Source: Escherichia coli (GTDB lineage Bacteria; Pseudomonadota; Gammaproteobacteria; Enterobacterales; Enterobacteriaceae). From it: a stretch of DNA of 64,000 bases. This document shows positions 28,809-37,370 of this stretch, one piece after another. The stretch is from assembly GCF_044324875.1 (NCBI RefSeq), contig NZ_CP172185.1, one strand, 5' to 3'. Numbering within the stretch: position 1 is the stretch's first letter; each line of letters opens with the position of its first letter. The translations under genes were made by a program, and so were the position numbers. The notes below the pieces were generated by a model that saw only the letters and a list, made by a program, of their open reading frames with translations, ran no database searches and was not told where the DNA came from.

Positions 28809-31508
28809 ATGCGTAAATATCCTTTAAGTTTACTGAAGGATAAAAATATTGTGACTTTTTTTGATTTCTGGGGAAAAACCCGACGCGGCGAGAAAGACGG
28901 GGGCGACGACTATCACCTTCTTTGCTGGCATTCGCTGGATGTAGCCGCGATGGGCTATTTAATGGTTAAAAGCAATTGCTTCGGGCTGACTGACTATTTT
29001 CGTCAACTAGGTTTCGCTGATACGGAGCAGGCAGCACAATTTTTCGCCTGGCTATTGTGCTGGCACGATACTGGAAAATTTGCCCGCTCTTTTCAGCAAC
29101 TTTACCTGCACCCACAACTCAAGGTTCCGGAAGGCGCAAGAAAGAATTACGAAAAGATCTCTCATTCAACGCTGGGCTACTGGCTGTGGCATCATTATTT
29201 AAGTGAATACGAAGAATTGCTTCCTTCATCTTCACTCTCTCCGCGCAAACTTAAACGGGTGATGGAGATGTGGATGCCCATAACTACCGGGCATCATGGT
29301 CGCCCGCCTGACCGTATTGATGAACTGGATAATTTTCTGCCTGAAGACAAAGCTGCCGCGCGAGATTTTCTTCTTGAAATCAAACCACTGTTTCCGCTCA
29401 TAGAGATCCCCGCATTCTGGGATGATGATGAGGGCATTGAACTTATAAAACACCTTTCCTGGTATATCTCTGCAACCGTCGTGCTCGCAGACTGGACGGG
29501 TTCGTCAACGCGATTTTTTCCACGCGTCGCACACCCAATGGATATTAAAGGTTACTGGCAGAAAACTTTAGTTCAGGCTCAAAACGCCTTAACCGTCTTT
29601 CCTCTAAAAGCAAAAGTCGCGCCTTTCACCGGAATTAATACGCTGTTTCCTTTTATTGAGAATCCGACACCGTTACAGCAAAAGGTGCTGGATCTGGATA
29701 TCAGCCAGCCAGGGCCACAGTTATTTATTCTGGAAGATGTGACTGGCGCAGGTAAAACGGAAGCGGCGCTTATCCTGGCGCACAGGTTGATGGCTGCGGG
29801 TAAAGCGCAGGGTTTGTTTTTTGGCCTGCCAACAATGGCAACGGCCAATGCCATGTACGATCGACTGGTCAAAACCTGGCTTGCTTTCTATTCGCCAGAG
29901 TCCCGCCCCAGCCTGGTGCTGGCACACAGTGCCCGAACATTAATGGACCGCTTTAATGAATCACTCTGGTCCGGTGATTTAGTCGGGTCAGAAGAACCGG
30001 ATGAACAAACGTTCAGTCAGGGATGTGCGGCCTGGTTTGCCGACAGTAACAAGAAGGCGCTACTGGCTGAAATTGGCGTCGGCACGCTGGATCAGGCGAT
30101 GATGGCTGTGATGCCGTTCAAACATAATAATCTGCGGCTTCTGGGACTGAGTAACAAAATCCTGCTGGCTGATGAGATCCATGCCTGTGACGCTTACATG
30201 TCATGCATTCTTGAAGGGCTGATCGAGCGGCAGGCGCGTGGCGGAAACAGCGTCATTTTGCTTTCTGCCACGTTATCTCAACAGCAGTGCGACAAACTCG
30301 TTGCTGCCTTTGCGCGTGGTACAGAGGGCCAGCAAGAAGCTCCGTTCCTGGAAAAGGATGATTACCCCTGGCTGACGCACGTTACGAAATCCGATGTGCA
30401 TTCACACCGGGTAGCGACGCGCAAAGACGTTGAGCGTAGCGTGAGCGTGGGTTGGCTTCATAGCGAACAAGAATGTATTGCGCGTATCGAATCGGCAGTA
30501 AGTCAGGGGAAATGCATCGCCTGGATCCGGAATTCTGTCGATGACGCTATTAAGGTTTATCGTCAGTTGCTTGCCCGCGGCGTCATTCCTGCTTCCAGCC
30601 TTTCTCTGTTTCATAGCCGCTTTGCTTTTAGCGATCGCCAGCGAATTGAAACGGAAACGCTGGCACGCTTCGGTAAAGAAGATAGCTCACAGCGTGCCGG
30701 AAAAGTCCTCATTTGTACTCAGGTCTTAGAGTCGAGCGTTGATTGCGATATGGACGAAATGATTTCCGACCTGGCCCCTGTTGATTTGCTGATCCAGCGA
30801 GCGGGGCGATTACAGCGGCATATCCGCGATATTAATGGTCAGTTAAAGCGTGACGGAAAAGACGAGCGTTCCCCTCCTGAATTGCTGATTCTGGCCCCCG
30901 TCTGGGACGACGCTCCAGGTGACGAATGGTTCGGCAGTGCCATGCGTAACAGTGCATATGTCTATCCCGATCATGGACGAATCTGGCTGACGCAGCGTGT
31001 ACTGCGTGAGCAAGGCGCTATTCAAATGCCACACGCAGCCCGCCTTCTTATTGAATCAGTCTACGGTGAGGACGTGGTAATGCCGGAAGGATTTGCCCGC
31101 AGCGAGCAGGAGCAAGTGGGCAAATATTACTGCGATCGCGCAATGGCTAAAAAGTTTGTGCTGAACTTCAGGCCTGGCTATGCCGCCAATATCAACGATT
31201 ACCTTCCGGAAAAGCTGTCGACACGTCTGGCGGAGGAGTCTGTTTCCCTGTGGCTGGCTACCTGTATTGCCAGTGTGGTGAAGCCTTATGCCAACGGTGC
31301 TCACGCATGGGAAATGAGCGTTGTCAGAGTGCGTCGAAGCTGGTGGAAAAAACATCGGGATGAGTTTTCTTTACTGGAAGGGGAAGCGTTCAGGCAGTGG
31401 TGCATTGAACAGCGGAAAGATCCGGAGATGGCAAACGTGATTTTAGTTACCGATGACGAAAGTTGCGGGTATTCGGCTATGGAAGGATTGACTGGCAAGG
31501 TTGGTTGA
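28809..31508 (+). CDS. cas3: Cas3 nuclease/helicase (type I-E)
   Basis: 899 aa; HD nuclease motifs (LLCWHSLDVAA, WHDTGKF), DEAH-type helicase (GAGKTEAA, LADEIHA); immediately precedes cse1. Confidence 0.93.
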   Translation: MRKYPLSLLKDKNIVTFFDFWGKTRRGEKDGGDDYHLLCWHSLDVAAMGYLMVKSNCFGLTDYFRQLGFADTEQAAQFFAWLLCWHDTGKFARSFQQLYLHPQLKVPEGARKNYEKISHSTLGYWLWHHYLSEYEELLPSSSLSPRKLKRVMEMWMPITTGHHGRPPDRIDELDNFLPEDKAAARDFLLEIKPLFPLIEIPAFWDDDEGIELIKHLSWYISATVVLADWTGSSTRFFPRVAHPMDIKGYWQKTLVQAQNALTVFPLKAKVAPFTGINTLFPFIENPTPLQQKVLDLDISQPGPQLFILEDVTGAGKTEAALILAHRLMAAGKAQGLFFGLPTMATANAMYDRLVKTWLAFYSPESRPSLVLAHSARTLMDRFNESLWSGDLVGSEEPDEQTFSQGCAAWFADSNKKALLAEIGVGTLDQAMMAVMPFKHNNLRLLGLSNKILLADEIHACDAYMSCILEGLIERQARGGNSVILLSATLSQQQCDKLVAAFARGTEGQQEAPFLEKDDYPWLTHVTKSDVHSHRVATRKDVERSVSVGWLHSEQECIARIESAVSQGKCIAWIRNSVDDAIKVYRQLLARGVIPASSLSLFHSRFAFSDRQRIETETLARFGKEDSSQRAGKVLICTQVLESSVDCDMDEMISDLAPVDLLIQRAGRLQRHIRDINGQLKRDGKDERSPPELLILAPVWDDAPGDEWFGSAMRNSAYVYPDHGRIWLTQRVLREQGAIQMPHAARLLIESVYGEDVVMPEGFARSEQEQVGKYYCDRAMAKKFVLNFRPGYAANINDYLPEKLSTRLAEESVSLWLATCIASVVKPYANGAHAWEMSVVRVRRSWWKKHRDEFSLLEGEAFRQWCIEQRKDPEMANVILVTDDESCGYSAMEGLTGKVG

Positions 31509-31605
31509 GATGCCTGCGACAGGGCTCTCTGAATAGTTGATACACCGAAAAGGATGGAATGATGGACAACCGACCTGGGATGGTCTTTTTTACGAGAGGA
31601 TGCGT

Positions 31606-36160: not shown

Positions 36161-37080
36161 CGTTTGTACCGCTGAGCCCGATCCCATTAAAAGATCGCAC
36201 TTCCATGATCTTCCTCCAGTACGGTCAAATCGACGTACTGGACGGCGCTTTCGTGCTGATCGACAAAACAGGGATCCGCACGCATATTCCAGTGGGATCG
36301 GTCGCCTGCATTATGCTCGAACCGGGAACAAGAGTTTCCCACGCGGCAGTCCATCTGGCCGCCACGGTGGGAACACTGCTGGTCTGGGTCGGTGAAGCGG
36401 GCGTTCGCGTTTACTCCTCCGGACAACCCGGAGGGGCGCGGGCAGATAAATTACTCTACCAGGCAAAGCTGGCTTTAACGGAAGATCTACGGTTGAAGGT
36501 GGTGCGCAAAATGTATGAATTACGTTTTCGTGAACCACCGCCAGCTCGCCGTTCAGTGGAGCAGTTACGGGGAATTGAGGGATCCCGTGTTCGCCAGACC
36601 TATGCATTACTGGCGAAGCAATATGGTGTGAAATGGAATGGTCGCAAATACGATCCTAAAGACTGGGAAAAAAGCGATGTTGTGAATCGCTGCATCAGTG
36701 CTGCCACATCATGTCTGTACGGTATTTCTGAAGCGGCAGTATTAGCCGCGGGATATGCGCCCGCTATTGGATTTATCCATAGTGGCAAACCGCTTTCATT
36801 TGTTTATGACATAGCCGATATCATTAAATTTGATTCGGTTGTGCCAAAGGCATTTGAAATAGCAGCGAGGCAACCCGCAGAACCAGATAAAGAAGTCAGG
36901 TTGGCCTGTCGTGATATTTTCCGTAGCAGTAAGTTAACGGGCAAATTAATTCCGTTAATCGAGGAAGTGCTTGCCGCAGGTGAAATTGAACCACCACAAC
37001 CCGCGCCGGATATGTTACCGCCTGCCATCCCTGAACCTGAAACGCTGGGCGATAGCGGTCACCGGGGACGCGGCGGATGA
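36157..37080 (+). CDS. cas1: Cas1 integrase
   Basis: ORF 36121..37080; GTG at 36157 overlaps casE stop (GTGA) and gives [21 protein letters not shown].. N-terminus. Confidence 0.9.
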
Positions 37081-37370
37081 GTATGGTCGTCGTTGTTACA
37101 GAAAATGTCCCTCCGCGCTTACGTGGACGGCTCGCGATCTGGCTCCTGGAAGTGCGTGCCGGTGTTTATGTCGGAGATACGTCCAAACGTATTCGGGAGA
37201 TGATCTGGCAGCAAATCTCTCAACTGGCAGGTTGCGGAAATGTGGTAATGGCCTGGGCGACCAATACCGAGTCGGGTTTTGAATTTCAGACCTGGGGTGA
37301 AAATAGACGTATTCCGGTGGATTTGGATGGGGTGCGTTTGGTTTCTTTTCTTCCTGTTGATAATCAATAA
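37077..37370 (+). CDS. cas2: Cas2
   Basis: 97 aa; start overlaps cas1 stop (ATGA); [19 protein letters not shown].. Confidence 0.92.

Follow-up and report, generated by a model that had tools for sequence, protein, structure and literature searches.

Two divergent sets of type I-E CRISPR-associated (cas) genes, E1 and E2, have been described in Escherichia coli, of which E1 is the primary and widespread set (Almendros 2014 mBio, PMC3903273). E1 has a mean G+C content (GC) of 53.5%, is linked to leader L1 and keeps the hok/sok module next to cysH, whereas E2, found in K-12 and in a minority of mostly phylogroup A strains, has a GC of 45.6%, is linked to leader L2 and has lost hok; hok/sok also accompanies loci devoid of cas genes, recombination among E1 loci has been reported, and a tree of concatenated cas-E genes places Salmonella enterica and E. 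albertii within the E1 cluster and groups E. fergusonii with E2 (PMC3903273). The same two sets are known as cas-EO (O157:H7) and cas-EK (K-12), the former being tied to leader-A and type-A repeats; cas-EO has been shown experimentally to acquire spacers beside CWT (read on the spacer strand as AWG), in contrast to the CTT used by K-12, and CAT (ATG) has been reported as the most frequent motif for leader-A/E1 arrays (Díez-Villaseñor 2013 RNA Biol, PMC3737337). We describe here a complete cas operon carried on a stretch of E. coli DNA of 64,000 nucleotides (nt) (NCBI RefSeq assembly GCF_044324875.1, contig NZ_CP172185.1; the whole stretch is referred to as the window). Judged by its sequence, it is almost certainly a type I-E CRISPR-Cas locus of the chromosome, intact and belonging to the variant cas-E1 (cas-EO, O157:H7-type), and it occupies the position customary in E. 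coli, between cysH-hok/sok and iap. The variant is an already known one, published as cas-E1/cas-EO, and K-12 carries the minority cas-E2.

Operon content and assignment to cas-E1

Eight consecutive plus-strand open reading frames (ORFs), without internal stops, occupy positions 28809-37370 in the type I-E order cas3-cse1-cse2-cas7-cas5-cas6e-cas1-cas2, all on one strand and followed by a leader and an array, as is proper to subtype I-E (Table 1). All eight proteins exceed the cut-offs curated by NCBIfam and Pfam for type I-E, and do so along nearly the whole of each model, with E-values of 1e-29 to 1e-183. Among them are the signature genes of the subtype, cse1 and cse2 (matched also by PF09481 and PF09485), and Cas1e, Cas2e and Cas6e of the I-E type (TIGR03638, TIGR01873 and TIGR01907, all over their cut-offs). 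Cas3 is a single polypeptide that joins an HD nuclease to a DExH helicase with catalytic motifs intact, as indicated by TIGR01596, TIGR01587, PF18019 and by alignment with K-12 Cas3, in which the HD motif, Walker A (TGAGKTE), DEIH, SAT and motif VI (QRAGRLQRH) all align. The catalytic His of Cas6e likewise aligns with K-12 H20, and an alignment with K-12 Cas1 shows the counterparts of E141, H208 and D221 to be retained.

The best match to the operon in a search of complete genomes, that of strain 7/2, is 99.5% identical at the DNA level with zero indels, and the gene starts assigned there by the NCBI Prokaryotic Genome Annotation Pipeline (PGAP) are the same as those of the eight genes in the window. 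All the ORFs are intact and equal in length to their PGAP-annotated homologues. An earlier note on this DNA, made from the letters and a list of ORFs, had claimed eight full-length genes at 28809-37370, and this is borne out: the genes have neither frameshifts nor stops and are free of indels relative to strain 7/2.

Several features place the operon in the E1 set. The CRISPR2.1 leader that follows cas2 agrees with the O157:H7 leader at 93 of 96 nt, and with the K-12 leader at 67 of 96. A hok/sok module lies between cysH and cas3, and the cas GC of 51.5% is nearer to the published E1 mean of 53.5% than to the 45.6% of E2. Identity to individual E1 operons is mosaic: strain 7/2 has the same Cas3, Cse1 and Cse2 (cas3-cse2, 100%), with cas1 only 96.8% identical in nucleotide sequence; Cse2 shares 84% with its O157:H7 counterpart and Cas7 100%; and Cse1 shares 84% with that of strain NS-NP030. 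Such a pattern would be consistent with recombination among E1 loci.

The earlier note had surmised that the operon is a variant other than that of K-12, in keeping with two divergent type I-E cas sets known in E. coli, and these are indeed the sets published as E1/E2 (PMC3903273) and cas-EO/cas-EK (PMC3737337). Its observation is essentially correct and so is its interpretation; both describe a thoroughly documented and very common system.

Divergence from the K-12 proteins

Each Cas protein was aligned by BLASTP with its counterpart from the MG1655 locus, taken as the K-12 reference (Table 1). The N-terminus of Cse1 reads MNSFSLLTTPWLPVRYKDG, matching the sequence quoted in the earlier note as differing from K-12 CasA, and direct alignment sustains that difference with an identity of 21.1%. 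A comparison of all the Cas proteins with K-12, which the note had proposed as a check, clearly does not reach identities above 95%; for the interference proteins that could be aligned the values are 21-35%. Equivalog models built on the K-12 type also fail, Cas3 scoring 420.7 against a cut-off of 569 with PRK09694, and CasA 103.9 against 576 with PRK09693; the general I-E models pass where these K-12-specific ones do not.

Gene junctions and start codons

Four junctions of the operon overlap. Those of cse1/cse2 and cas1/cas2 are of the ATGA type and that of cas6e/cas1 is of the GTGA type, the GTG of cas1 at 36157 overlapping the TGA stop of cas6e, whereas cas5 and cas6e overlap by 19 nt, with a GGAGGA Shine-Dalgarno sequence for the cas6e ATG placed inside cas5. 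The remaining junctions are separated by 14 nt (cse2/cas7), 10 nt (cas7/cas5) and 97 nt (cas3/cse1). The earlier note had counted five overlapping junctions while naming only four, and four is the number found; its ATGA or GTGA types hold for casA/casB, casE/cas1 and cas1/cas2 but not for casD/casE, where the overlap is the longer one of 19 nt. Short overlaps of start and stop codons are routine in bacterial operons and are unremarkable in themselves. The same layout recurs in strain 7/2, O157:H7 N8B7-2 and NS-NP030, the sole difference being a 1-nt cas1/cas2 overlap in NS-NP030.

The GTG start of cas1 proposed in the note aligns with Met1 of K-12 Cas1 and is conserved in E1 operons. Together with the GTGA overlap it is found in all four E1 operons examined, and it is the start chosen by PGAP in the other three. 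Because the first 16 residues of Cas1 are conserved relative to K-12 Cas1 (TWLPLNPIPLKDRVS), the downstream ATG at 36205 is excluded; this candidate and an upstream TTG at 36121 were both rejected, the K-12 alignment beginning exactly at GTG 36157. The ATG preferred for cse1, at 31606, has a well-spaced GAGAGGA Shine-Dalgarno sequence, and an alternative ATG at 31600 was rejected, being ATA in O157:H7 and abutting the Shine-Dalgarno sequence directly, with poor spacing. Long ORF starts at 31537 and 35372 were also set aside, as PGAP uses neither.

Arrays, spacers and protospacer-adjacent motif

The repeats of the CRISPR2.1 array recur at a period of 61 nt, and the window as a whole holds 13 repeats where none would be expected by chance; the repeat folds into a hairpin of 7 bp (-15.2 kcal/mol). 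The cas genes of the operon would also serve, in trans, the second array in the window, CRISPR2.3. Three spacers have identifiable protospacers. Spacers 1 (8875-8906) and 2 (8936-8967) of CRISPR2.3 each match gene 22 (tail sheath) of phage P1 at 32 of 32 nt; the two protospacers share a strand and are separated by 458 bp, both with an ATG protospacer-adjacent motif (PAM), and they occur on some 700 records of P1-like plasmids from E. coli genomes. The pairing appears compatible with primed acquisition by a system of this type. Spacer 7 of CRISPR2.1 (37862-37893) matches the Klebsiella phage ST13-OXA48phi12.3 at 31 of 32 nt, again with an ATG PAM, and also many Klebsiella plasmids of about 110 kb (30-31 of 32 nt), which suggests past contact with Klebsiella-type phage-plasmids. 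ATG (equivalent to CAT) thus precedes all three identifiable protospacers, a small sample in which two of the three spacers come from CRISPR2.3.

Compared with 5426 complete E. coli genomes, the CRISPR2.1 spacers for the most part lack a match: one of the eight was present in another genome's array among the matches listed, and all four spacers of CRISPR2.3 are common to one genome (ECA64), again among the matches listed. For the CRISPR2.1 leader-array segment, no genome listed in the search of complete genomes went beyond repeat-level identity (about 76-78%).

Proposed working of the system

Gene content, order and integrity, the catalytic motifs, the variant and the phage-matching spacers with their ATG PAM are direct observations. 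By homology with K-12 and other characterised I-E systems, a working scheme may be proposed for the locus. The leader at 37371-37466 would drive transcription of the array, and Cas6e would cut the precursor CRISPR RNA (pre-crRNA) at the repeat hairpin. Cse1, Cse2, Cas7, Cas5 and Cas6e would then assemble with the crRNA into the Cascade complex, which is predicted to locate an AWG-flanked protospacer, form an R-loop and bring in the HD nuclease/helicase Cas3, whereupon the target would be degraded. Cas1-Cas2 would add further spacers of 32 nt at the repeat nearest the leader. For interference and spacer acquisition the evidence is indirect, consisting of the spacers that match P1 and a Klebsiella phage and of their consistent ATG PAM.

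An IS21-family element upstream of cas3

Between hok/sok and cas3 lies an intact insertion sequence (IS) of the IS21 family, oriented in the same direction as cas3 and ending 52 bp before its ATG. The element is flanked by a 7-8 bp target-site duplication, CATAATG(T), constitutes a clean insertion relative to strain 7/2, and has copies at other places in E. coli that match it at 100%. Not one of 5426 complete E. coli genomes has the element at this site, and the insertion is the only strain-specific feature of the locus. Its arrival has shifted about 150 bp of very AT-rich DNA to a distance of 2.6 kb from cas3.

Scans for promoters and terminators gave counts at or below shuffle expectation, with no site bearing on the cas genes; in particular, no terminator-like site was detected between the istB stop (28657) and cas3, nor in the cas3-cse1 gap. 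A hybrid promoter in the IS21 style, combining a -35 element in the right end of the IS with CATAAT of the duplicated target, was sought by eye and rejected, as no acceptable -35 lies at a spacing of 16-18 nt. Elements of this sort are often inserted near the cas-E loci of E. coli, where they have mostly been viewed as neutral or degradative (PMC3903273).

Alternative explanations

Assignment to cas-E1 may be set against two other accounts of the operon. The first, that it is a K-12-type (cas-E2) operon or a decayed or pseudogenised cas locus, finds a foothold only in the shared genomic position, and meets in opposition the 21-35% protein identity to K-12, PRK models that remain below their cut-offs, and ORFs that are intact and of homologue length; we accord it practically no credence. 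A recent E1/E2 recombinant, with the cas1-cas2-leader-array module swapped with a K-12-type locus, would explain why Cas1 and Cas2 retain 85% identity to K-12, and it accords both with the documented exchange of modules at the cas locus (PMC3903273) and with the extent of detectable DNA homology to K-12, which starts in cas1, near its 5' end (about position 36178), and continues through the array. However, identity to K-12 at third codon positions is only 40% for cas1 and 47% for cas2, against about 90% at second positions, the leader is of the O157 type and not of the K-12 type, and cas1 and cas2 share 94-97% nucleotide identity with other E1 operons. A recent exchange at cas1-cas2 was rejected on the third-position values, leaving a recombinant origin highly improbable. 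Because third positions have diverged so far relative to second positions, the divergence of cas1-cas2 is an old one and the similarity of the proteins results from purifying selection: the adaptation proteins Cas1 and Cas2 are under strong purifying selection, and their split from K-12 is old.

Some observations nevertheless weigh against an intact and working cas-E1 locus. The cas GC of 51.5% is two points under the published E1 mean; the mechanistic detail is carried over from proteins only 21-35% identical; and sequence searches of the PDB with Cse1, Cse2 and Cas3 returned no E1-type chain, which marks a gap in the field and not a property of the window. Others of these observations concern expression. 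E. coli type I-E systems are typically silenced by H-NS, as shown for K-12 (PMC3903273); no convincing consensus promoter was seen upstream of cas3, in the window or in the IS-free strain 7/2, nor upstream of cse1 in the cas3-cse1 gap; and the IS has cut cas3 off from its AT-rich DNA, making either promoter loss or relief from silencing possible. The effect of the insertion could be activation by read-through, disconnection of a promoter, or nothing. That it has changed expression of the operon at all, whether by read-through from istA-istB (de-repression) or by loss of the cas3 promoter (leaving Cascade without its nuclease), is a possibility we regard as real but doubtful. It is favoured by an element that is intact, co-directional and 52 bp from the cas3 ATG, with a target-site duplication and identical copies elsewhere, by the lack of terminator-like sites from the istB stop to cas3 and in the cas3-cse1 gap, by the extreme AT-richness of the displaced DNA and by the uniqueness of the insertion among the 5426 genomes. 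On the other side, neither scan nor inspection by eye disclosed a consensus outward or hybrid promoter at the junction, the native E1 cas3 promoter may lie in the 52 bp that were retained, and IS insertions of this kind are common and mostly held to be neutral or degradative. With only 97 nt and no predicted terminator between cas3 and cse1, read-through could reach the whole operon. The more specific proposition, that displacement of a presumed H-NS-bound AT-rich region and read-through from istAB have together yielded a natural, constitutively expressed E1 system, seems improbable.

Table 1. Features of the CRISPR-Cas region, with window coordinates and, for the Cas proteins, identity to the MG1655 (K-12) counterpart
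Feature	Coordinates	Strand	Description	Identity to K-12
CRISPR2.3 array	8846..9118	+	between queE/ygcF and ygcE; five GAGTTCC-type repeats, four spacers; leader ~8600-8845	
hok	25816..25968	+	toxin gene of hok/sok module; ORF; Hok/Gef annotated in strain 7/2, O157:H7 and NS-NP030	
IS21-family element	26118..28756	+	istA, istB; ISSso4-like; 2.64 kb; IstB_IS21 and rve / Mu-transposase C-terminal domains	
cas3	28809..31508	+	899 aa; HD nuclease fused to a superfamily-2 helicase; TIGR01587 218 bits (cut-off 102), TIGR01596, PF18019	28.6%
cas3-cse1 spacer	31509..31605	+	97 nt; 97% conserved among four E1 operons	
cse1/casA	31606..33168	+	520 aa; Cascade large subunit; TIGR02547 609 bits (cut-off 70)	21.1% (CasA)
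cse2/casB	33165..33701	+	178 aa; Cascade small subunit; TIGR02548 102.7 bits (cut-off 28.5)	no significant match to CasB (E = 4.9)
cas7/casC	33716..34771	+	351 aa; Cascade backbone subunit; TIGR01869 448 bits	30.4%
cas5/casD	34782..35528	+	248 aa; TIGR01868 157.7 bits	35.2%
cas6e/casE	35510..36160	+	216 aa; pre-crRNA endoribonuclease; TIGR01907 287.8 bits	27.4%
cas1	36157..37080	+	307 aa; GTG start; TIGR03638 381 bits	85.1%, aligned from residue 1
cas2	37077..37370	+	97 aa; TIGR01873 131.6 bits	85.1%
CRISPR2.1 leader	37371..37466	+	E1/leader-A type; 96 nt; AT-rich	
CRISPR2.1 array	37467..37983	+	eight 29-nt repeats GTGTTCCCCGCGCCAGCGGGGATAAACCG, eight 32-nt spacers, degenerate terminal repeat 37955-37983	

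Other features of the window

The window departs from strain 7/2 outside the locus as well. On the minus strand at 4092-7663, after a gene of the LemA family, come three ygcG-like genes with a TPM domain and a tail rich in glycine and serine; this region of 3.5 kb, which in strain 7/2 is replaced by one ygcG occupying about 0.9 kb, forms a variable island between eno and queE. At about position 18275 the window lacks the IS1397 element (IS3 family) found between ygcP and ygcQ in strain 7/2. Finally, the interval between mutS and rpoS (52012-53695) is without a cluster of about 6 kb, ygbI-ygbN (ltnD/otnK), that strain 7/2 has; its pphB shares only 87% identity with the strain 7/2 gene, and about 1 kb of its DNA has no match there. 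This interval is a polymorphic region of E. coli.

Significance

For this stretch of DNA the outcome matters little beyond annotation, in that the locus should be labelled a type I-E system of the cas-E1 (O157:H7-type) variant and not of the K-12 type. From a wider perspective, it bears on the published point that K-12 represents a minority variant: at least 80% of the window operon is present in 2419 of the 5426 complete E. coli genomes, as against 1115 for the K-12 interference module at the same coverage. Details established in K-12, including its PAM preference in acquisition, its promoter layout and the control of its 414-nt region by H-NS and LeuO, may not transfer to most E. coli. The strain-specific IS beside cas3, for its part, amounts to a small natural experiment on cas regulation.

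Comparison with known systems

Among the systems to which the locus can be related are the type I-E systems of Thermobifida fusca and Thermus thermophilus (Cas3 4QQW and 4Q2C; Cse2 2ZCA), whose proteins belong to the same families as those of the locus but are distant homologues, from other phyla, that can serve only as templates for the fold. Cas3 matches PDB 4Q2C (E = 6.5e-77), and the best PDB match of Cse2 is TTHB189 of T. thermophilus (E = 0.0012); that of Cse1 is K-12 CasA (E = 1.8e-15), over the N-terminal 300 residues.

The type I-E system of K-12 (cas-E2/cas-EK; PDB 4QYZ, 4TVX, 5H9F and others) is the structural and mechanistic paradigm. It shares with the locus the subtype, the gene order, the chromosomal site between iap and cysH, the 32-nt spacers, the catalytic motifs and a 29-nt repeat that differs at one base (GTGTTCC in CRISPR2.1, GAGTTCC in K-12). 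The cas GC is 51.5% in the operon against 45.6% in K-12 by the same calculation. Overlapping junctions number four in the operon and two in K-12 (8 and 14 nt), and hok is kept in the window, whereas K-12 retains only sokX. The gap between cas3 and cse1 measures 97 nt against 414 nt in K-12, where the region carries the Pcas promoter controlled by H-NS and LeuO. Because this gap is so much shorter, and is 97% conserved in E1, transcription of E1 operons must be organised differently from what textbooks describe for K-12.

The closest relative is the E1 system of the O157:H7 type. From published E1 operons, as from the 5426 genomes, the locus is set apart by the IS21-family element 52 bp upstream of cas3. 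In other respects the correspondence is extensive, embracing the same eight genes in the same order, the same junction architecture and the GTG start of cas1, with 95.5% DNA identity to the O157:H7 operon and protein identities of 84-100% per gene, as well as the same type of leader, CRISPR2.1 repeats of the GTGTTCC type, hok/sok upstream and an ATG (CAT) PAM.

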